A DNA stretch of 54,852 bases. It comes from Nitrospirota bacterium (lineage in GTDB: Bacteria; Nitrospirota; Thermodesulfovibrionia; Thermodesulfovibrionales; JdFR-85). Below the pieces are notes generated by a model. That model did no database searches. It was given only the letters and a program-made list of their open reading frames with translations, and was not told the origin of the DNA. Location: assembly GCA_013152485.1 (NCBI GenBank), contig JAADGG010000081.1, positions 20,621 to 75,472 on the forward strand, given 5' to 3'. The translations under genes were made by a program, and so were the position numbers. Below are positions 21,606-36,023 of the stretch, piece by piece; the stretch's first letter is position 1; each line of letters opens with the position of its first letter.

Positions 21606-21977
21606 GTGAAGAACATACTCGTGGTAGAGGACTCCGAGTCTACACGTTCCATGATGAAGACCATTATAGAGGACCTTGGCGAGGATTACCATGTCTTTGA
21701 GGCCGGCACCGGTTTTGAAGCACTGAAGCTCCTTCCCGCAGAAGGGTTCAGCCTGATAATAACCGATATAAACATGCCCGACATAAACGGGATAGAGCTT
21801 ATCAACTTCGTAAAAAGTACGCCCCAGTATAAAGACATTCCCGTCATCATCGTCAGCACCGAAGGCTCGGAGGAAGACAAGGACAGGGGGCTGGCTCTCG
21901 GTGCGGAGGCCTACATCACGAAGCCTTTCAAGCCTGAAGAATTTCAGGAGAAGATCAGGGTGGTCTTGAATCCATGA
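21606..21977 (+). CDS. cheY: CheY-like single-domain response regulator
   Basis: Motifs VEDS, TDINMP, ST and TKPF; GTG start after GGAGGTG. Confidence 0.9.
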   Translation: MKNILVVEDSESTRSMMKTIIEDLGEDYHVFEAGTGFEALKLLPAEGFSLIITDINMPDINGIELINFVKSTPQYKDIPVIIVSTEGSEEDKDRGLALGAEAYITKPFKPEEFQEKIRVVLNP

Positions 21978-23938
21978 GTTCATCCAAAAAGGAGTTTGTC
22001 TCCGAGGCTGAAGAACTGCTCGAAGAGGCAGAGGAACACCTGATAGAGCTCCAGGAGTCTTCCGAGACAGGTGTTGATCCTGACACCGTCAACGCACTCT
22101 TCCGCTCCATCCACACACTCAAGGGGATCTCCGGACTCTTCGGGCAGGAAGGGCTCAAAGACCTAAGCCACGCCCTCGAGGAGATACTCGACGGTCTCAG
22201 ACGCGGCGATATAGAGCTCACCGACGAGATTATCGCGTTCCTGTTCAAAAACATCGATATCCTGAAGGGTCTGCTCAAAGACGCCGATGAGGGAAGACCT
22301 TCCGACACGGTCCGGTATCTTGAAGACATAAAAGAGTTCCGCAAGGGCATCACGAACCGCGCAGGAAAGGAGCCTCTCAGGGGTGTCATCGACGAGGCGA
22401 TACTGAATGTACTCTCCAGCTACGAAGAGCAGCGTTTGCGGGCCTGCATAGGGCAGAACAGGGGGATATTCATCGCAAGCGTCGTCTTCTCACTTGAAGA
22501 CTTCGACAAGAGACTATCCGAGCTCACGGACAAGATCAAGAAGGAAGGTGAACTGATATCGACGCTGCCTACATCGGAAGACATACCGCAGGACTCCATA
22601 GGCTTCAAGATCCTGTTCGCCTCCGACAGAAACTCCGACTCCCTCAAAACCGCCCTCGGTGTAGAGCCCGTACGGATCGCCGGAAAAAAGACGGCGGAAG
22701 AAAAGAGAGACACGCGCGCACCAGCCCCTTCACTCAGGAGCATCTCCACCACTGTAAGGGTGGACATAGAGAAACTCGACAGGATCCTCAACACGATAGG
22801 GGAGCTGTCGCTTACCAGAGGGGCCTTAAAGAGGATAGAACAGGAGCTTGCAGAGACCTACGGTCACTCGGAACTCGTCTTCGACATTCACCGGGCGACA
22901 CAGAGCCTTGAGAGGAGGCTCCACGAATTGCAGCAGCAGGTGCTGGAGGTCCGGATGGTGCCCATAGGACAGATATTCTCCCGGCTTGCCCAGATAGTGA
23001 GACGGTATTCCAGAGAGATAGGAAAGCCGGTCGACCTCGAGGTCTTCGGCGAGGAGACGGAACTGGACAAGTTCATAGCAGAAGAGATCGTAGATCCATT
23101 GATGCATATCGTAAGAAACGCCATGGACCATGGGATAGAGGGTCCAGAGGAACGGAAGGCCAAGGGAAAACCGGAAAAGGGAACCATGATCGTCAGGGCC
23201 TTCCAACGCGGCAACAGCGTGATAGTGGAGATAGAGGACGACGGCAGGGGGATAGACACGAAAGAGATACGGAGGAAGGCACTGGAGAAAGGAATCATCA
23301 CGGAGGAAACGGACTTGGACGACACGGAGCTGATAGGCTTCATATTCAGGGCCGGGTTCAGTACAAAAGAGACGGTGACGGAGGTATCGGGAAGGGGGGT
23401 CGGAATGGATGTGGTTAAGGAGAGGATTTCCTCCATCGGGGGTTTCGTGGACGTGAAGACCGAGAAAGACACATACACGCGGTTCTCTCTCACGATCCCC
23501 ATCACCCTCGCAATCATAAAGTCGCTCATGGTGAAGGTGGGTACCTACACGTTCGCCCTGCCCTTGTCTTCGATCGTGGAGACACTGACGGTCAACGGCG
23601 ATGCCCTGCAGATGATCGAGGGCAAGATGGTATACAACCTCAGGGGAGAGCTGTTGCCGGTCATGCCGGTGGCGGACCTCTTCGGCACGGGTCCGTACCG
23701 GGTGGAAGACGGATACATAGTGGTTTCCGGATACGGGGAACGGAGGGTCGGTCTCCTCGTGGACGAACTCATAGGCGGACAGGAAATAGTCATAAAGTCC
23801 CTCGGCGCATATTTCGAAGGACTGAAGGGCTTTGCAGGGGTCACAGAGGTCGGCAGGCACAACGCAATACTGGTATTGGACGTCGAGACACTGACAGAGG
23901 AGATCCTGCTGAGGCACAAGGGGTTGATCCATGTATAG
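21974..23938 (+). CDS. cheA: Chemotaxis histidine kinase CheA
   Basis: HPt (HTLKG), RVDIEKLD dimerisation region, HIVRNAMDHGIE, DDGRG, SGRGVGMDVV and a C-terminal CheW domain. Confidence 0.97.
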   Translation: MSSSKKEFVSEAEELLEEAEEHLIELQESSETGVDPDTVNALFRSIHTLKGISGLFGQEGLKDLSHALEEILDGLRRGDIELTDEIIAFLFKNIDILKGLLKDADEGRPSDTVRYLEDIKEFRKGITNRAGKEPLRGVIDEAILNVLSSYEEQRLRACIGQNRGIFIASVVFSLEDFDKRLSELTDKIKKEGELISTLPTSEDIPQDSIGFKILFASDRNSDSLKTALGVEPVRIAGKKTAEEKRDTRAPAPSLRSISTTVRVDIEKLDRILNTIGELSLTRGALKRIEQELAETYGHSELVFDIHRATQSLERRLHELQQQVLEVRMVPIGQIFSRLAQIVRRYSREIGKPVDLEVFGEETELDKFIAEEIVDPLMHIVRNAMDHGIEGPEERKAKGKPEKGTMIVRAFQRGNSVIVEIEDDGRGIDTKEIRRKALEKGIITEETDLDDTELIGFIFRAGFSTKETVTEVSGRGVGMDVVKERISSIGGFVDVKTEKDTYTRFSLTIPITLAIIKSLMVKVGTYTFALPLSSIVETLTVNGDALQMIEGKMVYNLRGELLPVMPVADLFGTGPYRVEDGYIVVSGYGERRVGLLVDELIGGQEIVIKSLGAYFEGLKGFAGVTEVGRHNAILVLDVETLTEEILLRHKGLIHV

Positions 23939-24731
23939 GGAGTTCTACGGCCTGCGGGAGCACCCTTTCAGCAAGACTCCGGACCCTCGCTTTCTCTATC
24001 CGAGCAGGGCACACGAGGAAGCACTCGCAAGACTTCAGCACGTTGCGGAAGAAAGGGAGATAATGATGTTCACAGGCGACATAGGGTGCGGAAAGACCAT
24101 GCTCACAAGGGCGTTGATGGACTCTCTCGACGACAGCTATCGGATAGTCCTCATTCTCAACCCAAGACTGACGGCGAACCAGTTCTTGAGAACGGTTGCC
24201 CGCCGCATGGATGCAGCCCCTGCTTCAAACCACAAGGACGAACTCCTCGAGGCCGTTCACAGAAGGGTCTACGAGTATCACGAAAGCGGCATCACCCCGG
24301 TGATAATCATCGATGAGGCCCAGCTCATACCGAGAAGGGATACGTTTGAGGAAATCAGGCTCCTTACCAATTTCCAGCTCGACGAAACCAACCTCGTAAG
24401 CCTGATCTTCGTGGCACAACCGGACATTCTCAGGAGGATGCGACACAGGGCATATGCGCCTCTCAGACAGAGGATCGGGTTCTTTTATCATCTGCAGCCG
24501 CTGTCCGAGGGCGAAGTCTCTGAATACATCGATCACAGACTGCGTGTGTCTGGCAGGAAGACGAGGCTGTTTACCGATGAAGCGGTCAGCCTCATTCACA
24601 GGTACTCCGGCGGGATACCCAGGCTCATAAACAGCATTGCGGCCTCGGCACTGCTCGATGCATTCGCCGGGGAATCCCGACTGGTCGACAAAGACAACGT
24701 GATGGACGCAGTGGAGGAGCTCGGACTCTGA
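23931..24731 (+). CDS. ExeA/GspA-family AAA+ ATPase (ATPase domain only)
   Basis: MYREFYGL..PF..TPDP N-terminus, Walker A GDIGCGKT, Walker B IIIDEAQ, LRQRI and GGIPRLIN. Confidence 0.9.
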   Translation: MYREFYGLREHPFSKTPDPRFLYPSRAHEEALARLQHVAEEREIMMFTGDIGCGKTMLTRALMDSLDDSYRIVLILNPRLTANQFLRTVARRMDAAPASNHKDELLEAVHRRVYEYHESGITPVIIIDEAQLIPRRDTFEEIRLLTNFQLDETNLVSLIFVAQPDILRRMRHRAYAPLRQRIGFFYHLQPLSEGEVSEYIDHRLRVSGRKTRLFTDEAVSLIHRYSGGIPRLINSIAASALLDAFAGESRLVDKDNVMDAVEELGL

Positions 24732-25423
24732 TGGACATGGCGAAGATCAGGAAGAAGGCCGCACAGGCCGGATCCGGCGCTGAACCGCGGATCAAAGCGG
24801 AACCGAAGAAACCTCCGGCCGACGATGCTGCAGAGACCGGAGCCGCTGTCGGGGAAGACCCCGCGGCAGGACAAGGCAGCGCCGTCGGGCGCGGCGAGAC
24901 AGACAGCCAGGCTACACCGGAGGACTCCCCGGCCGAAGTCCGCGAACCCGAGATCGTACTGCTGTGTTTCAGGCTCGGCTCCGAGACACACGCCTTCCGT
25001 TTGCGGGACGTACAGGAGATCGCCCATCCGCCTGCGGTAACGCCGGTGCCGGGGACTCCGCCCTATGTAAGGGGGCTGAGCTCCCTACGCGGCAAGATGC
25101 TTCCGATCATCGATCTCAAGGCGCGTCTCAACATCACACCTGACGATGAGAGGCCCCCCGCAGCGGAGAGGGCCGCCCAACGGGCAAAGGTGATCATAGT
25201 CAGGGGACCAAAAGGGCCGATCGGTGTCCATGCAGACGGAATCATAGGGGTCAGACGGATGCCCGAAGCCGACCTCTCCCCTGCCCCCGCACACATCGAT
25301 GAAGAGGAGGCGAGGTTCATTGAGGGAGTCGTCATCTCCGAGGGAACGTTCGTGACCGTTCTTAGGGCTGAAGAAGCGCTCACGTTCAAGATAACCGGAA
25401 GGGTGCTTCCAGAAGTCCGCTGA
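24731..25423 (+). CDS. cheW: CheW adaptor with long N-terminal extension
   Basis: FRLGSE, VQEI, TPVPGTP.YVRG..LRG; ~70-aa Ala/Pro/Glu-rich N-terminal region. Confidence 0.9.
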   Translation: MDMAKIRKKAAQAGSGAEPRIKAEPKKPPADDAAETGAAVGEDPAAGQGSAVGRGETDSQATPEDSPAEVREPEIVLLCFRLGSETHAFRLRDVQEIAHPPAVTPVPGTPPYVRGLSSLRGKMLPIIDLKARLNITPDDERPPAAERAAQRAKVIIVRGPKGPIGVHADGIIGVRRMPEADLSPAPAHIDEEEARFIEGVVISEGTFVTVLRAEEALTFKITGRVLPEVR

Positions 25424-25481: not shown

Positions 25482-28334
25482 ATGGGAAAGCTTGAAAAGA
25501 AGGTCCTTGGAGTCGTCATGTCGGTCATTATCCTGGGCACCATATTCGCCGTGACCATCGTAATCTATCTTCAACGTAAAAACATCTACGAGACAGCCCA
25601 GGAGAAGATGTTCGAGACCGCGACCGTAATCAGCACGAGCATCGAAAGGACCATGCTGGAGGGGCGTTCCGAGATCACCAAGGCCATGGCCGGAGACCTC
25701 AAGGCTTTAGAAGGGGTTGAAACCATCACCATCCTGAACCACGAAGGCCGCGTGGCCTTCGACAGGAAGGCCCCTGCAACGGAGAAGGACTATGTCGAAA
25801 GATTCAGGACGAACCTCTCCCCCTACTCCCTGATCGAGAACGGAAGGATGATCATATACAAGCCACTGGTAAAGAGGTCGGCCTGCCAGAAGTGCCACAA
25901 GCTCGACAGCCCCTTCATAGGCGTAGTCAAGGTCTCGATGTCTCTCGACAGCGAGAAGCGGAAGATATCACAGATGGCTACGATCAACATCACCGCATCC
26001 CTGTTCGCCATCAGCATCCTCTCCTTCATAATGTGGCTGCTCCTCAGAAAGATAGTGATCAACCCTATAAAGAAGATCGAACTGGCCGCAAGGCACCTGT
26101 CGGACGGGGACCTGACTTTCAACGTCGACATAGACACTTCCGACGAGATCGGACAGGCGAGCGTTGCGCTTCAGGATGCCCTCCAATCGATATCATCGAT
26201 CCTCCAGAGGGTAAAGGACGTCACGAAAAGGATATCGAAGATCTCTTCGGAGGTAGAAGCCGACTCCAGGGACATCCTCGAGGGCACACAGCTTGAGGCC
26301 GAGGCGATCGAGAACATATCCGCCTCGATAGAGGAGCTGAACGCCGCAATCACCGAGATAGCCGCAAACACCGAAGACCTTGCAGCGTCTTCCGAGCAGA
26401 CGAGGTCAGCGGTCGAAGAGATGGCCGCCAGCACCTCTCAGATCGCAAACAACAGCAACGAGCTCTTCGAGTCTACAGAATCCACCTCGGCATCCATCGA
26501 GGAGCTCTCCTCTTCCATAAAAGAGGTTGCACAGAACGCCGACGAACTCTTCAGGTCGGCCGAGGACACCCTCTCTGCAATCGAAGAGATTACCGCCTCG
26601 ATCAGGGAAGTCGAGGGCAACACCAAGGAGTCGGCCAGGCTGAGCGAGCGGGTCATGAACGAGGCATCCACCTATGGCATGACATCCATCGAGAAGACCA
26701 TCAAGGGGATGGAGCGGATAAAGACATCCGTCGAGAAGACTGCGGAATACATAAAGAAGCTGGGCGGGCGGTCTGAAGAGATAGGCAAGATACTCACCGT
26801 GATCGACGACGTAACGGACCAGACCACCCTTCTTGCGCTCAATGCCGCCATACTGGCGGCACAGGCCGGTGAACACGGGAAAGGATTCTCCGTGGTCGCC
26901 GACGAGATAAAAGACCTTGCAGAGAGGACCTCTTTCTCGACACAGGAGATATCGTCCCTCATACAGACGGTGCAGCAGGAGGTCATGGATGCAGTGGATG
27001 CAATGAAACACGGCCTCGAGGCCGTCAACGAAGGTCTCGGTCTCTCAAAGGAGGCCTCAGAGGCTCTCAGAAAGATCGTCGAGAGCGCACAGCTGTCTTC
27101 AGAGATGTCGACGGCAATAGAACACTCGACCTCCGAGCAGGCAGAGGCCGCAAGGTTCGTCTCGAGATCCATGGAGAACGTGCGCAACATGGCCAGTCAG
27201 ATAGCAAAGGCGACCTCGGAGCAATCAAGGGGTATGAACCTGATAACAAATGCAGCCGAAAAGGTCAAGGATATAGCCATACAGGTGAAGACCGCCACCG
27301 AGGAGCAGTCGACGCAGAGCAGGCAGATAAGGAAGAGCACCGACGTGGTCTCTGAAAAGAGCCAGCAGATAGCCAACGCCATCAATGAGCAGAAGACCGA
27401 GTCCGAACAGATAAAGAGGTCGGCAGAAAACATCTCAGACCTGCCCATGAAGAACAGAAACCTCTCGTTCAAGGTCAACAACTCCCTGAGGTCACTCGTA
27501 AAGGACTCCGAGCTGATCGTTACGGAGATGGAAAGGTTCCGCTTCTCCATATCCGCACGGACCGAAAAGACCATCAGGTTCGGGGTCATCCCCCTCGAGT
27601 CTCCCGCGGACATGCACAGAAAGTTCACGCCTCTTGCAGAGTACCTGAGCAGAAGGCTGGGCAAGAGGGTTGAACTAAAGGTCGGCGTCGATTTCGACAG
27701 CGCCATAAAGGAGATAGGCAGCGGAACCACACAGTTGTGTTACATGACCCCATCCACATACATAAAGGCCAACCGCGACTACGACGTCAGGGTTATCGCC
27801 AAGGCCCTGAGGAACGGCAAGCCCTTCCACCACTCGGTCATAATAGCCAGGAACGACAGCCCGGTATCGAGTATCGAAGACCTCAGGGGAAGGTCCTTCG
27901 CCTTCGGAGACAAGGAGTCCACGTCTTCGCACATAGTGCCGCGCTACATGCTGCTTGAAGCCGGCATAGACCTCAACGACCTGCTGTTCTATAATTATCT
28001 CGGACACCACGACGATGTTGCGAGGGCGGTGCTCTCCGGAGAGTACGACGCCGGAGGAGTCATGGAATCAACTGCAGACAAATACAAGGAGAGGGGCTTG
28101 AAATTCATAAAGTTCTCCGATGAAATCCCCGAGTTCAACATATGTATCACCAGCGAGATGCCCCAGGAGTCCGCAGAGGAGATAAAGTCGGCCATTCTCG
28201 CCCTCAAGGATACCGGAGCGGAGGGGATAGCGGTCCTGAAGTCCATCGATGAGCACTACACGGGGTTTGTAGAGGCCAGTGACGATGACTACACCTGGAT
28301 AAGGAACATCATGTCGAGACTGAAGATGATATGA
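25482..28334 (+). CDS. Methyl-accepting chemoreceptor: periplasmic c-heme sensor, HAMP, ~64H signalling domain, C-terminal PhnD/PtxB-like binding domain
   Basis: TM ~aa 9-30 and ~167-188; CQKCH at aa 135-139; HAMP (DEIG); tip [22 protein letters not shown]. Residues ~696-950 resemble a phosphate/phosphite/phosphonate SBP ([42 protein letters not shown]). Confidence 0.92.
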
Positions 28335-28401: not shown

Positions 28402-30390
28402 ATGAATACTAAAAAGAGACTATCCACGACATTCATACGCAAGGTCCTCGTGGTACTGCTTATCGGACAGTCCTTCATCTGGTACTGGTCCTTCTCCAGA
28501 CACAATATCACCATTGACACCGATCTGGAGAAGAGGATGCAGACGGCGTCGGCCATCATCGGAAGCGTTGCAGCCGCCGTGGATACCGCACAGGGACACA
28601 GATACCTCGAACGAGTGATGGACGGGGCCCTGAGTGATGAAAACATCGTATACATAGAGGTCAGCAGGGAGAGCGACGTCGTGATCAGGAGGTCTACGTC
28701 TCAGGACGACCCGGCGCTGCGCATCGTCAAGACCCCCATAGTAAAAGGGGATTCCGAGATCGGCACTGTGCTGCTGAAATACAAATCCGGGAAGACCGAT
28801 ACGGCCTTCATACTCACAAACCTGACGCTCCAGGGCATCGTCTTCACCGTGCTGACGCTGCTGATATACCTCTTCTTCCAGGGGCACATCGGGACTCAGA
28901 TAGCGAAGTTGAGCACGAATATCGAGAAGGTCACCCTCGGTGACCTGACCCAGAAGGTCGAGATCTCCGAGGACAACGAGATAGGAGTCATCGCAAAGGG
29001 TCTCAACTTCCTGATCGAGCGGCTCCTGATCACCGTGAAGAAACTGAAAAGCGTGGCTGGAAACGTCTCTGCAGCGATAAGCCAGCTCAACCTGACTTTC
29101 AAGAACGTAATCAACGGCATAAGTCACCAGCAGCGGTCCATCGAGGAGATATCGAGGGCAGTGAAGACCGCCTCGGGCGCACAGCTCCAGACGATTACGA
29201 ATACCGAGAAGCTCCTCTCACTGTCGAACGACAATGTATCCGCCCTCCTTGAGATGAGGGCGGCCTCTGAGGAGATAGCGGCCAACATAAGCAGTCTCAA
29301 CAGGAACATCAGCGCTTCATACTCCACGCTGGCGGGCCTTACACGGTCGGCTCAGGAAGTGGCCTCCATGGCGGACAATGCCACGTCGGCGGTCCAGCAG
29401 GCCTCGACCTCCATTGAAGAGATCAACGCCTCGGTCAAGGAAGTGGAAAAGACCATAAAAGAGTCCGCGGAACTGAGCCATCAGACTACGAACATCATTG
29501 CGGAGAAAGGAATGCTCTCGGTTGTGGATGCCATCGAGGGGATGGAGAGGATCGAAGACTCCGTGAACTCTCTCTCCGAGGCGATCAAGAGACTCGGCAG
29601 GAGATCGAGGGACATAGAGAAGATCCTATCCGTCATCAAGGATGTTACGGAGCAGACGGGCATGCTCAGCCTGAACGCACAGATACTCGCTGTACAGGCG
29701 GGAGAGCACGGAAAGAGTTTCTCCGTGGTGGCGGATGAAATGCGGAGCCTGTCGGAGAAGACCGCGGTGTCCACGCACGACATCGCAATCATAGTCTCCA
29801 CCCTCCAGAAGGAGATACGAGAGGCCATGGAGAGTACGATGGAGACCGTCAGGATGGTTGAAGAGGGGAATCATATAGTCCTCAAGACCGGCGATACCCT
29901 GAGGGAGATACTGCACGCCTCCCAGAAGTCCACAAGCATGGCTGAAAGCATCGAACGGGCGGTCGTGCAGCAGGCAAAGGGCCTGGAACTCATAGTCAAC
30001 GCCATAGAGCACATAAAGGGCATGATCATCGATGTAAACAGGACGACCGAGGAACAGGAGCAGGGCACGGCGTCACTGCTTGAGAGCATAAGCTCGATCA
30101 AGGAATCCATGGAGGCCGCAAGGAACGCCACGGACGAGCAGGCGGAGAGCACGAGGTTCATTACGGATAACATCGAGCTCGCAAACGAGAAGACGGCCGA
30201 GATAGCAAGGGCCTCGGCCGAGCAGCAGGAGGTCAACAAGAGGATAATAGAGGCGATGGAAGAGGTCATGGTTATAGGGAAGGAGACGGCGAGAAACGTC
30301 AAGGAGGTCTCCCTCTTCATCTCGTCGCTGCACAACGAAGTTGAAGTATTGAGAAAGGAAGTCGAGCTCTTCAGGACGAGCACTGCATGA
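28402..30390 (+). CDS. Methyl-accepting chemoreceptor (~64H) with small periplasmic domain
   Basis: Two TMs, HAMP (NEIG) and tip NAQILAVQAGEHGKSFSVVADE; ~222 aa from the tip to the C-terminal FR. Confidence 0.92.
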   Translation: MNTKKRLSTTFIRKVLVVLLIGQSFIWYWSFSRHNITIDTDLEKRMQTASAIIGSVAAAVDTAQGHRYLERVMDGALSDENIVYIEVSRESDVVIRRSTSQDDPALRIVKTPIVKGDSEIGTVLLKYKSGKTDTAFILTNLTLQGIVFTVLTLLIYLFFQGHIGTQIAKLSTNIEKVTLGDLTQKVEISEDNEIGVIAKGLNFLIERLLITVKKLKSVAGNVSAAISQLNLTFKNVINGISHQQRSIEEISRAVKTASGAQLQTITNTEKLLSLSNDNVSALLEMRAASEEIAANISSLNRNISASYSTLAGLTRSAQEVASMADNATSAVQQASTSIEEINASVKEVEKTIKESAELSHQTTNIIAEKGMLSVVDAIEGMERIEDSVNSLSEAIKRLGRRSRDIEKILSVIKDVTEQTGMLSLNAQILAVQAGEHGKSFSVVADEMRSLSEKTAVSTHDIAIIVSTLQKEIREAMESTMETVRMVEEGNHIVLKTGDTLREILHASQKSTSMAESIERAVVQQAKGLELIVNAIEHIKGMIIDVNRTTEEQEQGTASLLESISSIKESMEAARNATDEQAESTRFITDNIELANEKTAEIARASAEQQEVNKRIIEAMEEVMVIGKETARNVKEVSLFISSLHNEVEVLRKEVELFRTSTA

Positions 30391-30914
30391 AATACGCCAT
30401 CTTCGAGATCGCCGGCGAGAGTTTCGGCATAGGAATCGACCGGGTCGTCGAAATACTGAAGTATCAGGACCTTCACAGGATTCCGGAACTCCCGGATTTC
30501 GTCTCCGGCGTGATAAACGTAAGGGGGGAAGTCGTTCCCGTCATAGACATGAGGTTGAGGTTCGGAATAGCCGAAGAAGCCCGGCGGCACAGGATCATTC
30601 TCGTCAGGATGGAAGGCGACAAGGTCGGTCTGGTTGTGGATGACGTGACGGACATAGTGGAGATACCGGAGGACGGCATATCGAGTCCCCCGAAGCTGTT
30701 CAAAGGATTCAGGGCGGAGTTCATGAAAGGACTGTGTCAAGGGCGCTCCGACAGCGGTACAGGGCCTGCCGGCAACGGCAAGGTGATAATAATACTGGAT
30801 ATGGAACGGATCCTGACAAGCAGCGAAAAGATCATGTTGAGCACTTCGAGGAAGAAACTGATTACTCACGGGAGGAGACGTGTCAGCAGAAGAGTCCAGG
30901 AAGGCCAGGAATAA
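30387..30914 (+). CDS. cheW: CheW adaptor
   Basis: FGIGIDRVVEI, IPELPDFVSGVINVRGEVVPVIDMR and VGLVVDDV. Confidence 0.93.
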   Translation: MKYAIFEIAGESFGIGIDRVVEILKYQDLHRIPELPDFVSGVINVRGEVVPVIDMRLRFGIAEEARRHRIILVRMEGDKVGLVVDDVTDIVEIPEDGISSPPKLFKGFRAEFMKGLCQGRSDSGTGPAGNGKVIIILDMERILTSSEKIMLSTSRKKLITHGRRRVSRRVQEGQE

Positions 30915-32856
30915 AGACATCGAGCTGAAGCGGCGGAAGATACTCGCTTCAAAGGGCGTACCCGAAGCCCTGGGCTACGTCATGGATTCCTTCAAAGACG
31001 ACAGCTGGCGTGTGAGAAAGACCGCCCTCGATGTCCTGATCGAGGGGTTCAGTCCGGACGCCTACGTCAAAGACCTGATCGGACTGCTCCATGTCGAGGA
31101 CAATGCGGGTGCACGCAATACCGCCATAGAGGCCCTCGTCAGACTCGGGAAAAAAGCGGTTCCCGATCTCACCGCCGCCTTTGAGACCGACAATCCAGGC
31201 GTGAGAAAATTCATAATCGATGTCCTGGGTGTCATAGGCGGGAAAGAGGTCGTCCCATTGTTCCTGAAGGCCATAAGGGATGAGGACGACAACGTCAGGG
31301 CCTCGGCCGTAGAGTATCTCGGAAGGCTCAAGGAGCCGTCAGTGATAGACTCTCTGGTGGAGATCATCGAGACCGGAAAGCTCTGGACGGCCTATCCCGC
31401 GGTGAACGCCCTGGGAAAGATCGGCGACACAAGGGCCTTGCCCCACCTGTTGAAGGCACTCCGGAACAGTCTTCTTACAGAGCCGGCCCTCAAGGCACTG
31501 TCAGAGTTTTCAGTCCCGGAGACGCTGAAGGAGATAATACCCCTGCTCCGAAGCCGGAGACGATCCACCGTAGAGGAGACGATCAAGACCATCGAGAGGT
31601 TCTATCAGGCCGGTGTGCCCGAGGAATTCATATCCAAACAACTGCACGAGATACTCGGAGACGATGCCTGTGAAATATTCGAGAGGCACATAAGCCACAA
31701 AAACAAGGAAGTGAAGGGCTCTGCAATCCTCCTTCTCGGTCTCCTGTGCGATCACCGGGCATTGGGACCGCTTCTCGAGCTCTCCGAAGACGAATCCTCC
31801 ATGGATGCGGTCAAGCGTTCGATGGTCTTCATAGGCCGGCGGAACCCCCACTACCTCATTCCGCTGACAAGGACGGGGGCCCCCGAAAGGCGGAGGCTGA
31901 TAGTCGAGGTCATGTCCGAGCTCGAAGACCCTCTCTTCCGTGACACACTCATGGTCTTGCTCAAGGACGACGACGGGCATGTGAAAGCGCATGCTGCAAG
32001 GGGACTGGGCAGGATAGGGGACAGGAGGGCCGCAGAAGAGATATTTCATCTCCTTTCACATCCATATCCCGACGTACAGGACGCTGCCGTAGCGGCACTG
32101 ACCGAGTTGAGCGCATTCCTCGACGTCTCCGAACTGATCGACAAGCTCAAGTCTCCCGATGTGCTCTTGAGGAAAAACACAGCCCTGATTCTGGGTAATA
32201 TCAGGGCCGTCGAGTCTCTCGAAAAACTCGGTTTTGCACTCAAGGATGAAGCAGAAGAGGTACGGAAGGCCGCGGTTGTCTCGATATCCATGATCGGAAC
32301 CGAAAATGCCGCCAGGTACCTCCATACGGCTCTCACTGATGAATCCGCCGAGATACGTGCCATAGCCACGGAAAGCCTCTCGCTCTGTGACGACGGTCCC
32401 GAGGTCCTGAGCTCCGTCATAATAATGACGAGAGATCCCGACGAGGGGGTCAGGGCATCGGCAGCCAAGGCACTTTCCAGATACCATAACGAGTCGTCTC
32501 TCAGAACACTGCTGGGATTGTTGAGAGACGGCAACGGCTTTGTCGTGACTCAGGCCATGGAGTCGCTGAGCCTCTTCAGCCACAGCACGGAGGCCCGGGA
32601 GGCACTGGTCAGGTTGAGCCTTTCGGATGACAGCGAGATCCGCAGGACGGCAATCCTGTCACTGTCATCGTTTCATGACGTGGAAGACCTGCTGGAAACC
32701 CATCTCTCCAGCAGCGACTGGGCAACGAGGCTTGCCGCCGTGCAGGCACTGTCACGGATAGGTTCCCGAAAATCGCGGGCAGGGCTGGAGGGGATCTACG
32801 ACGTCGAGACCGACCCTACTGTCAGGAGGGCCATCGAGGTGGCTTTAGGTGTTTGA
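30880..32856 (+). CDS. HEAT-repeat (PBS-lyase-like) protein
   Basis: Many repeats of the type L.D....VR..A..ALG.IG over 658 aa; GTG start after GGAGGAG. Confidence 0.88.
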   Translation: MSAEESRKARNKDIELKRRKILASKGVPEALGYVMDSFKDDSWRVRKTALDVLIEGFSPDAYVKDLIGLLHVEDNAGARNTAIEALVRLGKKAVPDLTAAFETDNPGVRKFIIDVLGVIGGKEVVPLFLKAIRDEDDNVRASAVEYLGRLKEPSVIDSLVEIIETGKLWTAYPAVNALGKIGDTRALPHLLKALRNSLLTEPALKALSEFSVPETLKEIIPLLRSRRRSTVEETIKTIERFYQAGVPEEFISKQLHEILGDDACEIFERHISHKNKEVKGSAILLLGLLCDHRALGPLLELSEDESSMDAVKRSMVFIGRRNPHYLIPLTRTGAPERRRLIVEVMSELEDPLFRDTLMVLLKDDDGHVKAHAARGLGRIGDRRAAEEIFHLLSHPYPDVQDAAVAALTELSAFLDVSELIDKLKSPDVLLRKNTALILGNIRAVESLEKLGFALKDEAEEVRKAAVVSISMIGTENAARYLHTALTDESAEIRAIATESLSLCDDGPEVLSSVIIMTRDPDEGVRASAAKALSRYHNESSLRTLLGLLRDGNGFVVTQAMESLSLFSHSTEAREALVRLSLSDDSEIRRTAILSLSSFHDVEDLLETHLSSSDWATRLAAVQALSRIGSRKSRAGLEGIYDVETDPTVRRAIEVALGV

Positions 32857-33733
32857 CAGGAGAGAGAACACCGTCCTCTCCGAGGATGTATTCAGGCTCC
32901 TCAGGGAGCTGATACGGGACTACTGCGGCATATACTTCGATGACAACTCGAGGTACCTTCTCGAAAAACGCCTGTCGGCGAGACTCAGGGCGAACAACAT
33001 AAGCAACTTCCGTGACTACTACAGGTACCTCCTCTATGACGGAAACCGCGAAAACGAACTCGCCGAGATAATGGACGTGCTCACGGTGAACGAGACCTAC
33101 TTCTTCAGGGAGAAGAACCAGCTCCTCTCTTTCAGCGAGGAGATACTTCCCGAACTGAGGAGGAAAAACAGGCATACGGGAAAGCTGAGGATATGGTCGG
33201 CAGGTTGTTCAACAGGTGAAGAGCCGTATACCATAGGCATACTGATACTCGAAAGCAACCTGTTCAACGGATGGGACGTCGAGATCATAGGAAGCGACAT
33301 CAACAGAAGGGTGCTACAGACCGCAAGAAGGGGGGTTTACAGGCAGAACTCCTTCAGGTGCATTGACAGTTACTACCTGGACAAGTACTTCGAACCCCTT
33401 GAGGACGGCTCCTTCAGAATAACGGACAAGGTGAAAAGACTCCTCAGTTTCGGATATCTCAACCTGCTCGACCCTGTAAAGATGCGTTTCATGGGAAAGA
33501 CCGACGTGGTCTTCTGCAGAAACGCACTGATATATTTCGACATGCAATCACGAAGGAAGGTGGTTGACGGTTTTTACAACGTATTGGCCGAAGGGGGATA
33601 CCTGCTCCTGGGACACGCGGAGTCGCTGATAAACATGTCGACCGCCTTTGCACTCAAGCACCTAAAGCGAGACCTCGTATACCAGAAACCCGAAACGTCG
33701 TCACAGGGGGCCGTACAATGCCGGAAAGGATAA
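32849..33733 (+). CDS. cheR: Chemoreceptor methyltransferase CheR
   Basis: TVNETYFFRE, IWSAGCSTGEEPY, FCRNALIYF and GGYLLLGHAES. Confidence 0.97.
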   Translation: MFDRRENTVLSEDVFRLLRELIRDYCGIYFDDNSRYLLEKRLSARLRANNISNFRDYYRYLLYDGNRENELAEIMDVLTVNETYFFREKNQLLSFSEEILPELRRKNRHTGKLRIWSAGCSTGEEPYTIGILILESNLFNGWDVEIIGSDINRRVLQTARRGVYRQNSFRCIDSYYLDKYFEPLEDGSFRITDKVKRLLSFGYLNLLDPVKMRFMGKTDVVFCRNALIYFDMQSRRKVVDGFYNVLAEGGYLLLGHAESLINMSTAFALKHLKRDLVYQKPETSSQGAVQCRKG

Positions 33734-34776
33734 AGGTCCTGGTTGTCGATGACTCCGCCTTCAGCAGGCAGACGATCAAGAACATGCTGCTGAAGGCTCC
33801 GGTGGTCGATGTGGTGGGGGTCGCCGTGGACGGGATCGACGCAATAAGAAAGACCCTCCGTTACAGGCCGGACATAATAACTCTCGACGTCGAGATGCCG
33901 AAGATGGACGGGTTCAGCTTCCTGCGGTGGCTTATGAGGGAACGTCCAACGCCCGTAATAATGGTCAGCTCACACTCGGACAGCAAGACCGTGTTCAAGG
34001 CACTGGAGCTGGGAGCCGTCGATTTCATCGCCAAGCCGACCAAACGGGCTTCCTTCGAGCTTCAGAAGATCGAGAACGACCTGCTGTCAAAGGTCCGCAA
34101 CATAGATGCCTCCTCTCTGCACAGGCTCAGCAGGAACCTCAGATCCGTATCCGCGATGAGAGAGGCGGAGAGGCTTCCGGCGCCGCCAGGAAAACATCCG
34201 GACGGGATTGTGGCCATAGGCGCCTCCACGGGCGGTCCCCAGGCGCTTCAGCTGATTCTGACGGCGATACCCGGAAACTTTCCCGTGCCGATCGTGATAA
34301 GCCAGCACATGCCGAGGGGGTTCACGGCCTCGTTCTCGGAGAGGCTTAACAGGCTTGCTGAAATACGGGTCAAGGAGGCCGAAGACGATGAGCCTATCGA
34401 GCCCGGAGAGGCGCTGATATGTCCGGGCGGTCACCATCTGCAGTTCAGAAAGAGGGGGGAGCGGGTCTTTACCAGGATCAGGGACGCAGATGAAAACGAC
34501 CGCTACGTGCCCTCTATAGACCTCATGATGGAATCCGCAGCTGAAATATTCAACGGGATGACCCTCGGCATCGTACTGACCGGAATGGGGAATGACGGGG
34601 CAAAGGGGATGCTGGAAATTTTCAGGCAAGGCGGTTATACTATTACCGAGTCTGAAGAAACGGCCGTTGTTTTCGGCATGCCCCACGAGGTCATTAAAGC
34701 AGGAGCAGCACGAAAGGTCCTGCCGCTCAAGGCGGTTCCCTCTGAACTTATACACGTAGTGATGCGGGAACAGTAG
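33718..34776 (+). CDS. cheB: Chemoreceptor methylesterase CheB
   Basis: Receiver domain (VDDS, LDVEMP) plus the GASTGG, QHMP and GMGNDG catalytic triad. Confidence 0.97.
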   Translation: MPERIKVLVVDDSAFSRQTIKNMLLKAPVVDVVGVAVDGIDAIRKTLRYRPDIITLDVEMPKMDGFSFLRWLMRERPTPVIMVSSHSDSKTVFKALELGAVDFIAKPTKRASFELQKIENDLLSKVRNIDASSLHRLSRNLRSVSAMREAERLPAPPGKHPDGIVAIGASTGGPQALQLILTAIPGNFPVPIVISQHMPRGFTASFSERLNRLAEIRVKEAEDDEPIEPGEALICPGGHHLQFRKRGERVFTRIRDADENDRYVPSIDLMMESAAEIFNGMTLGIVLTGMGNDGAKGMLEIFRQGGYTITESEETAVVFGMPHEVIKAGAARKVLPLKAVPSELIHVVMREQ

Positions 34777-34819: not shown

Positions 34820-35641
34820 ATGGACAAGAAACGCGGGATACTGAAAAAAGCCGATGAGTTCCTGCAGATTTTCAAGCAGGGAGAGGAGTTCACCAGGAAC
34901 CTCCTGAGCGAGAACGAACGTCTCCGGTTCCGGATCGCGGAGCTGGAGGAAGCCCGTACGCAGGACCTGAATGCGGCAAAGATACGCCATTATGAAGAAC
35001 ACATACGCATGCTGAAAGACGAGCTGGAGTCCCTGAAGGAACGATTCAAGAGGGTCGAGACCGAGAACAGGAACTTCGAGCAGAAGTACCTGCTCGTCGC
35101 CGAGGAAAACAACAACCTCGCAAACCTATATGTCGCAAGCTACCAGCTGCACTCCACACTCGATTACGAAGAGGTCATAAAGATAGTCGTGGAGATCATC
35201 ATCAACCTTATAGGGGCGGAAAGGTTCGCCGTCATGCTGATGGATGAAAGGCTCGAAAAGCTGGTACCGATAGCCTCAGAGGGCATAAGCACAGCCGCGA
35301 TAGCAGGGGTGTTCCCTGAAGACGGTATCATAGGGACGGTACTGAAGGAGGGTGAGAGTTATTTTTCGGAAGAACCTCTACAGGAAGGCTCGGATGATCC
35401 CGCAAGTCCTTCGGTATGCATACCCCTGAAGATCAAGGAGCATGTGATCGGTGTGATTGCAATCTACTCGTTTCTCGTCCAGAAGAGGAGCTTTTCCAAT
35501 GTCGATTACGAGCTCTTCAATCTCCTGGCAGGCCATGCAGCCACCGCCATATTTTCATCAAGGCTCTACACACGCTCTGAGAGGGAGTTCAGAACCATCC
35601 AGAACTTCCTGGAACTTCTGAAGGGAAAATCCAAGCAATGA
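34820..35641 (+). CDS. Coiled-coil plus GAF domain protein without output domain
   Basis: ~95-aa heptad-rich N-terminus, then LHSTLD..EV…GIIGTV…CIPLKI..HVIGVI…LLAGHAATAI (GAF). Confidence 0.8.
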   Translation: MDKKRGILKKADEFLQIFKQGEEFTRNLLSENERLRFRIAELEEARTQDLNAAKIRHYEEHIRMLKDELESLKERFKRVETENRNFEQKYLLVAEENNNLANLYVASYQLHSTLDYEEVIKIVVEIIINLIGAERFAVMLMDERLEKLVPIASEGISTAAIAGVFPEDGIIGTVLKEGESYFSEEPLQEGSDDPASPSVCIPLKIKEHVIGVIAIYSFLVQKRSFSNVDYELFNLLAGHAATAIFSSRLYTRSEREFRTIQNFLELLKGKSKQ

Positions 35642-35651
35642 AGGAGGGATC

Positions 35652-36023
35652 ATGCCAACCATCCTGGTAGTCGAGGATTCACCCACGATGAGACAGCTCA
35701 TAAGCTTCGCAATGCGCCGGATCCCTGGATCGAGGGTTATCGAGGCCACCGACGGTGTCGATGCCCTGAAGAAGCTCTCATCGGAGAAGGCTGACATCAT
35801 CCTTGCCGATATAAACATGCCCGTAATGGACGGGCTGAAGCTGGTGAGTCTGGTAAGGGGCAATTCGGCATACAAGGACATCCCCATAATCATAATCACC
35901 ACGGAAGGAGCTGAGGAAGACAGAAAAAAGGCGATGGCCATGGGAGCCGACGCCTACCTGCCGAAACCGATACAGACCCAGGAGCTCATCAGGCTCGTAA
36001 CACAGCAGCTCAGCAAGCGGTAG
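35652..36023 (+). CDS. cheY: CheY-like single-domain response regulator
   Basis: VEDS, ADINMPVMDG, TT and PKP; SD AAGGAGG. Confidence 0.92.
   Translation: MPTILVVEDSPTMRQLISFAMRRIPGSRVIEATDGVDALKKLSSEKADIILADINMPVMDGLKLVSLVRGNSAYKDIPIIIITTEGAEEDRKKAMAMGADAYLPKPIQTQELIRLVTQQLSKR

Follow-up and report, generated by a model that had tools for sequence, protein, structure and literature searches.

A Nitrospirota chemoreceptor with a PtxB/PhnD-type domain behind its signalling hairpin: a candidate cytoplasmic second input

To our knowledge, work on the inputs of chemoreceptors deals almost always with the N-terminus, and very few cases of a cytoplasmic input at the C-terminus are known, PilZ being one example. 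A gene in a 54,852-nucleotide (nt) stretch of DNA from Nitrospirota bacterium GCA_013152485.1 (the window, by which the whole analysed stretch is meant, with all of its coordinates given below on the + strand) raises the question of what a binding-protein fold that usually works outside the cell might do at the C-terminal end of such a receptor. The gene is a single uninterrupted open reading frame (ORF) of 950 amino acids (aa) at 25482-28334, stop codon included, and its Pfam domains are those of a chemoreceptor followed by a domain like that of the binding proteins PhnD and PtxB. An original prediction made from the sequence letters had described it as one such ORF, and this has been borne out.

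The fused receptor and its spread

A hydropathy scan of the whole protein finds only two hydrophobic stretches, at about aa 4-33 and 162-197, corresponding to a first transmembrane segment (TM1, about aa 8-30, 25503..25571) and a second (TM2, about aa 166-190, 25977..26051); no third segment was found after aa ~200. The HAMP domain (aa 187-237, 26040..26192, Pfam E 1.8e-9) follows TM2, and the inferred topology has these two TM segments only. The signalling hairpin of the methyl-accepting chemotaxis protein (MCP) type comes next (aa 240-685, 26199..27536, from Pfam and an AlphaFold2 model), with an MCPsignal match at aa 419-569 (E 2.8e-42) and further matches to the PDB structures Tsr and TM1143. 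Its tip Glu464 (26871..26873), read from the translation, sits in the region where conservation peaks: mean column conservation is 0.83 at the tip, 0.71-0.72 in the arms, 0.73 in the C-terminal domain and 0.55 in the periplasmic domain. Since the tip is at E464, HAMP ends near aa 237 and the C-arm helix ends near aa 685, the hairpin has about 32 heptads per arm and is of 64-heptad-like (64H-like) length, 64H being a class name used in print (PMC8235581, in the part available). The layout of TM1, CxxCH domain, TM2, HAMP and ~64-heptad hairpin with its tip Glu464 thus agrees in Pfam, hydropathy and AlphaFold2 with what had been predicted. Both hairpin arms are made up of 28-residue (4-heptad) repeats, a shift of 28 giving the best self-similarity in each; an (I/V)EE(L/M/I) motif stands at aa 283, 311, 339 and 367, and T(S/E)EQ at aa 550, 578 and 606 is followed by NEQ at 635, with a spacing of roughly 28 aa. 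These repeat motifs may be methylation-type sites, or a relic of the growth of the 64H bundle.

The PtxB/PhnD-type domain comes after this cytoplasmic hairpin, and no signal peptide stands ahead of it. On the topology described above, its very probable location is the cytoplasm, beside the end of the helical bundle where HAMP and the membrane lie. The original prediction had likewise placed it on the return helix, at its membrane-proximal end, which the inferred topology supports.

The gene is genuine and widely conserved, and it is not an assembly artefact. A homology search with aa 640-950 against proteins of 522-1663 aa returned 528 matches, and all of the best 120 of these carry both PF00015 and PF12974, 109 of the 120 being 940-960 aa long; the order of MCPsignal followed by Phosphonate-bd, for which independent occurrences had been called for, is therefore found in all of these best matches. 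Of 301 genomes sampled from the phylum, the source genome among them, 153 have a PhnD-like match at E <= 1e-20, and a fused open frame of at least 800 aa was counted by hand in at least 75 among the matches listed; 239 further PhnD-like matches lie beyond those counted. In most of the genomes with a fused frame the PhnD-like match begins inside the C-arm, and several of the fused genes are on single-contig chromosomes. Relatives carrying the same fused frame thus answer the earlier concern that an assembly error or a lost stop had joined two genes. Four families (11, 50, 28 and 24 sampled genomes) gave no PhnD-like match. The relatives bear NCBI labels of Nitrospirae/Nitrospirota or Thermodesulfovibrio-type metagenome-assembled genomes (MAGs). 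A search of genome contigs with the family alignment, in which the patterns were mostly generic MCP tip motifs, yielded at least three loci, all of them free binding proteins. In the one public DNA data set that has this organism, no RNA data set being listed, low-depth 151-nt contig pieces stop at 27545 and resume at 27561, and none bridges the junction; the lack of a bridging contig is immaterial because the fused frame recurs in other genomes.

The haem-c sensor and the PtxB/PhnD-type domain

The periplasmic domain (aa 31-165, 25572..25976) is recognised by profile, AlphaFold2 and Foldseek as a PAS-like haem-c sensor domain. It carries a CxxCH haem-attachment motif (C135, C138 and H139, 25884..25898), in which each cysteine is present in all of 110 full-length relatives and H139 reaches at least 98% there and 13/13 in a smaller alignment. 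As a single sequence it matches the family Mcp40H-20_sensor (PF21563, aa 48-156) only below threshold, at E 8.6e-4 and 20 bits for a cut-off of 27. A profile of 13 relatives matches the PDB entries 3b47 (E 1.5e-13) and 3b42 (E 3.8e-13), with which the CxxCH motif aligns, and so does an invariant Met at aa 58, which we take to be the distal haem ligand. The AlphaFold2 model of the domain has a predicted local distance difference test score (pLDDT) of 89.6, and its best Foldseek matches are again 3b42 and 3b47. The titles of these two structures name them as periplasmic sensor domains of Geobacter GSU0582 and GSU0935, which are described as PAS-fold c-haem sensors in the available parts of PMC3460858 and PMC2577667. 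Because of this homology to solved haem-c sensors, the assignment of the periplasmic domain as a c-haem sensor, put forward in the original prediction, is well supported, with haem attachment itself a prediction from the motif. Cytochrome-c maturation genes are present in the source genome.

The C-terminal domain (aa 697-950, 27570..28331) is of the PtxB/PhnD type, the type II binding-protein fold, by Pfam, PDB search, AlphaFold2 and Foldseek alike. Phosphonate-bd (PF12974) matches at aa 700-937 with its entire profile, positions 1-242 of 242 (E 2.2e-67), and the modelled fold spans aa 697-950, consistent with the complete substrate-binding protein fold that had been expected after the hairpin. 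NCBIfam TIGR01098, the phosphate/phosphite/phosphonate binding-protein subfamily, scores 159 bits, above its cut-off of 112, and the PhnD equivalog TIGR03431 scores 146 bits, below its cut-off of 261. The closest solved sequence relatives are phosphite-binding PtxB proteins, with 5o2j aligned end to end at E 9.5e-33. In the AlphaFold2 model of aa 601-950, built from 65 aligned relatives (mean pLDDT 90.8), pLDDT is about 93-98 from aa 711 onwards and both lobes and the hinge appear intact; Foldseek places this model closest to ligand-bound PtxB (5o37/5o2j, target TM-score 0.87, root-mean-square deviation 2.6), the apo-open form giving 0.66-0.69.

The pocket can be read through the roles assigned to Ps_PtxB residues by Bisson et al. 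2017 (PMC5700983, in the part available), mapped through the alignment to 5o2j. The Ser-Thr-Ser (STS) anion-binding motif S124-T125-S126 corresponds to S813-T814-S815 (27918..27926), conserved in 110, 109 and 110 of the 110 relatives, and His155 corresponds to His843 (28008..28010), present in all 110 and in 36/36 MCP-linked representatives. The other half of the pocket has changed: Tyr49 is replaced by Phe738 (109/110), Tyr94 by His783 (Gln in 57 of the 110 relatives, His in 52 and Tyr in 1), the capping Tyr203 by Phe885 (110/110) and Asp16 by Leu705 (108/110). Next to His783, His784 is found in 107/110, and since His784, His817 and His842 are conserved as well, the cleft is rich in histidine, with a pocket specific to this family. 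Judged by this alignment, the anion-binding half-site is kept and the phosphite-specific half is not, and because Tyr49, Tyr94, Tyr203 and Asp16 are all replaced, phosphite or phosphonate is a doubtful ligand. The sensing of an oxyanion pool, as proposed originally, is a conjecture: the STS-His motif is still there, but the residues that would tie it to a phosphite-like ligand are not.

In the source genome assembly, which is 91.5% complete, PhnE and PhnC have no above-cut-off match, so that the earlier remark on the absence of phnC and phnE nearby was right and extends to the whole assembly. The genome has one further Phosphonate-bd gene and no others, encoding 296 aa on contig C31 (L004:7401-8291). 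It lies together with an ABC_sub_bind protein in a region (L004 3502-10296) without transporter genes, flanked by the gene of a multihaem cytochrome and that of a HAMP-GAF histidine kinase; the 296-aa protein would seem, like AioX, to be a binding protein dedicated to signalling. As a source or twin of the C-terminal domain it was considered and rejected, being 25% identical and without STS.

The junction between bundle and domain is also visible in the model, in which the helix continues to about aa 685 and pLDDT falls below 50 at 686-693. The linker (aa 686-696, 27537..27569) is of low confidence and variable in sequence, and at about 11 aa it is longer than the ~6 aa first proposed. The distance from the tip to Pro704 is 237-242 residues in 124/128 proteins of the long type, the class to which this receptor belongs. 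Directly downstream, a second MCP of 662 aa (28402..30390), 64H-like and without a C-terminal domain, ends at the equivalent of aa 689. Its alignment with the fused receptor begins at TM2 and runs to aa 689, with 2 gaps and 32% identity across 522 residues, which puts the fusion point at about aa 689/690. By this alignment the neighbour is a natural minus-domain paralogue, and a control for the extra domain.

A cytoplasmic second input and its rivals

The domain is not bound to one receptor design. Against 1.84 billion representatives it has 7970 matches at E <= 1e-3, and in 36 of the best 150 of these the MCP arms or tip are matched as well. Besides the haem-sensor type of ~950 aa, there are TM-hairpin receptors of 830-839 aa without a periplasmic domain (from a Pfam scan of P0129), an sCache type (P0139, 965 aa), a dCache type (P0107, 1086 aa) and a short TM-hairpin type of ~610-650 aa with a 40-heptad (40H) bundle (P0156 having HAMP, MCPsignal and Phosphonate-bd). 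The short type has its tip Glu near aa 243, followed 147 residues later, in 50/56 proteins, by the conserved Pro in the first strand of the domain; this tip-to-Pro distance argues for a 40-heptad bundle with a linker of 2-3 residues only. Short-type proteins carry NCBI labels of MAGs of Nitrospirae, Deltaproteobacteria, Gammaproteobacteria, Firmicutes and an Acidiferrobacter-like group, one more label being legible only as 'Candidatus Acid...'. The same C-terminal domain is thus found after a haem, sCache or dCache sensor or after no periplasmic sensor, and on both 64H-like and 40H-like bundles.

How often the fusion arose is less clear from the tree of the domain, which holds 37 MCP-linked rows and 120 others. 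In the FastTree reconstruction the 64H-linked domains form one clade (support 98) and the 40H-linked domains another (support 95), to which the exported P0144 is sister; the 'free' rows within the fused clades seem to be pieces of fused genes. The approximately unbiased (AU) test did not reject a tree in which every fused domain belongs to one clade (p 0.218); it was run on 58 rows, made up of 29 of the 37, fragments having been dropped, and 29 of the 120, and it left out P0131, P0148, P0150, P0155, P0162, P0165 and P0180 as judged fragments or chimeras. The exported relatives near the 40H-linked clade, for example P0144, P0168, P0177 and P0173, have the signature LYY[T/R/K]STSHF, and N-terminal signal-like segments were found in these four free proteins. 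An assignment of the ligand from the pocket residues was tried and rejected; these exported relatives share the Leu at the Asp16 position and the cap Phe.

The reading preferred here, to which we would give an even chance, is that the C-terminal domain provides the receptor with a second input from the cytoplasm. It is favoured by the conserved cleft and the complete hinge-and-lobe fold, by the recurrence of the domain behind four kinds of N-terminal sensor and on bundles of two lengths, and by the near-direct attachment of the 40H type together with the precedent of the PilZ domain of Tlp1. The domain would still act as a Venus-flytrap sensor, in which the conserved STS-His site of lobe 2 would bind the anionic group of a small cytoplasmic ligand and Leu705, Phe738, His/Gln783, His784, His842 and Phe885 would set a specificity different from phosphite/phosphonate. 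Closure driven by the ligand could then bias the stability of the membrane-proximal bundle, or the access of CheR/CheB, and kinase control would integrate a periplasmic redox/gas signal with an intracellular metabolite signal.

Several observations weigh against this second-input reading. The model shows the C-terminal domain in a closed form, which carries no information on a ligand. Where PtxB has Tyr49, Tyr94, the cap Tyr203 and Asp16, the receptor family has Phe, His/Gln, Phe and Leu, and in Te_PtxB a cap Tyr-to-Phe change makes phosphite binding ~1000-fold weaker and nearly abolishes the binding of phosphite, phosphate and methylphosphonate (PMC5700983, in the part available), so that a pocket lacking the Tyr triad may bind poorly, or may bind something else. 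In two MCP-linked representatives (P0137 and P0138) and in an unassigned 195-aa fragment (P0182), Ala-Ala-Ala stands in the place of STS. Lastly, the linker of the 64H type is predicted to be disordered, is variable in sequence and differs in length by 1-3 residues, and a rigid mechanical link is for this reason not favoured.

The surroundings of the gene bear on the alternatives. Upstream of the fused receptor lie genes for a CheY-like receiver (21606..21977, from a domain scan), CheA (21974..23938), an AAA_22 ATPase (23931..24731) and a CheW-like protein with an N-terminal extension (24731..25423). Beyond the second MCP follow CheW (30387..30914), a HEAT-repeat (PBS-lyase-like) protein of 658 aa (30880..32856), CheR (32849..33733), CheB (33718..34776), a GAF-domain protein with an N-terminal region of ~110 aa (34820..35641) and a putative second CheY-like protein (35652..36023), named by synteny only from the CheY-like ORF that comes after the GAF gene in related loci. 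The fullest order is CheY-CheA-AAA_22-CheW-[fused receptor]-(MCP)-CheW-HEAT-CheR-CheB-GAF-CheY. Twenty related loci were compared, 18 of the long type and 2 of the short type, and che genes adjoin the fused receptor in 17/18 long-type loci, the exception (L038) having none; CheA is present in 14/18. The ATPase between cheA and cheW resembles the family of the XrtA/PEP-CTERM system (TIGR03015, 223 bits, below the cut-off of 324) and keeps this position in 13/18 loci; we know of no described role for such an AAA_22 ATPase in a che cluster. Cluster and receptor together are best explained if the fused gene is the dedicated, cluster-encoded receptor of a chemosensory pathway conserved in the phylum. 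Because the source genome has three further CheA-dimerisation-domain matches, about six MCP genes and FliG, this would be one of several chemosensory systems, and its accessory genes suggest that the output is not, or not only, the flagellar motor. The Che7 system of Myxococcus, which has a HEAT-repeat protein, is a parallel to this HEAT-containing cluster.

These neighbours give the main rival its footing. In it the C-terminal domain would not sense a small ligand but serve in protein binding or assembly, docking HEAT, AAA_22, GAF or CheR/CheB or shaping the receptor array, and we consider this rival unlikely. The 64H type does co-occur with the proposed partners, long-type loci having HEAT in 15/18, AAA_22 in 13/18 and GAF in 13/18, and a flexible linker, the lost phosphite-type Tyr triad and the loss of STS in some lineages would suit a domain that binds proteins. 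The most conserved residues, however, coincide with the ligand positions of PtxB (STS, His843 and the cap), the fold is intact in its two lobes and in the hinge, and the 40H-type receptors have no accessory genes nearby: in both of the short-type loci examined (L036 9598-11517, L037 9645-11591, each on the - strand) the gene lies outside the HEAT/AAA cluster. On the strength of these two loci the domain can be argued to be an autonomous module.

Quite unlikely is a narrower form of sensing, in which the domain is specifically a cytoplasmic sensor of phosphate, phosphite or phosphonate. Its nearest solved relatives are indeed PtxB in both the sequence search and Foldseek, STS-His is conserved and TIGR01098 is above its cut-off, but none of the four PtxB residues Tyr49, Tyr94, Tyr203 and Asp16 has been kept, the single cap change carried by Phe885 is the one that cripples Te_PtxB, and the PhnD equivalog falls below its cut-off. 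Proteins of the same fold bind, according to PDB titles, arsenite, arsenate, ATP, glycerol-1-phosphate and others, and because the fold accommodates such varied ligands the family name does not fix the ligand. That the fusion is an artefact of assembly or of a lost stop, or that the domain is exported, is hardly credible, and the artefact is effectively refuted: nothing in its favour was found, though read support for this genome is weak at the junction, with 27546-27560 unbridged; the same fused frame, free of any stop codon, occurs in at least 75 other genomes, single-contig chromosomes included, and in the best 120 of the 528 matches, and the domain, with no hydrophobic segment after aa ~200, has no signal peptide, unlike its free relatives.

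Returning to the second-input reading, its fullest form is tentative and has, as a whole, somewhat less than an even chance: a binding protein of the PhnD/PtxB kind would have moved into the cytoplasm and been wired to the return helix as an allosteric second sensor with a new, His-rich pocket for an anionic metabolite, in a probably non-flagellar, phylum-wide Che pathway with HEAT, GAF and AAA_22 partners that would jointly compute haem redox state and metabolite, the module having been taken up as well by 40H receptors in MAGs labelled as several other phyla. This is a large, strongly conserved family of receptors, whose second input would be a fold that usually works outside the cell. If the domain binds a metabolite, it would offer a clean natural case of signal integration across two compartments, a new ligand specificity within the PhnD/PtxB fold and a way into a Che pathway of anaerobic Nitrospirota that has yet to be characterised. 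The NCBI name given to both the long and the short types, 'phosphate/phosphite/phosphonate ABC transporter substrate-binding protein', misleads any inference about phosphorus uptake.

Comparison with known systems

The nearest periplasmic counterparts are GSU0582 and GSU0935 of Geobacter sulfurreducens, which likewise have a PAS-like domain with one CxxCH and the aligned Met between the two TM segments of an MCP; identity to them (3b47 and 3b42) is only about 14-19% in structural alignment. The Geobacter receptors presumably belong to the 40H class and are without a C-terminal domain. The Geobacter che paper (PMC2577667) has, in the part available, no mention of HEAT, 64H or phosphonate.

In the placing of the second domain, the closest design is that of Azospirillum brasilense Tlp1, in which signalling is tuned by a C-terminal PilZ domain that binds cyclic di-GMP with a dissociation constant of 6.9 uM (Russell et al. 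2013, PMC3604760, in the part available). Tlp1 likewise combines a periplasmic sensor with a second cytoplasmic ligand-binding domain after the hairpin, tuning signalling or adaptation, whereas the receptor described here has a ~254-aa PtxB/PhnD-type fold on a 64H-like bundle within a che cluster with HEAT, GAF and AAA_22. PilZ has no match in the Pfam scan of the fused receptor, and Tlp1 is an analogue in design only. The accessible part of the same paper counts several hundred receptors with non-PilZ C-terminal domains, and the legend of its Fig. 8, the legend only, includes Phosphonate_bd among the domains of receptors with identifiable C-terminal domains. C-terminal cytoplasmic inputs on chemoreceptors are thus already known and the PtxB/PhnD-type case has been listed before, uncharacterised, which takes away part of the novelty first claimed; the other part stands, as no characterised MCP with a C-terminal Phosphonate-bd/PhnD domain was found in the literature, judged partly by title and abstract.

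The periplasmic binding proteins PtxB, PhnD and HtxB (5o2j, 5jvb, 3p7i) share with the C-terminal domain the fold, the lobes, the hinge and the STS-His motif; they differ in that the domain here is without a signal peptide, is fused to a receptor and is cytoplasmic by topology. AioX, which is paired with AioS (table in PMC8050422, in the part available), and ArrX (6eu7, 6xl2) are also proteins of the Phosphonate-bd family that sense rather than transport. AioX and ArrX, however, are free periplasmic proteins that act on their kinases from the outside, whereas the domain described here is fused to its receptor and, by the same topology, intracellular.

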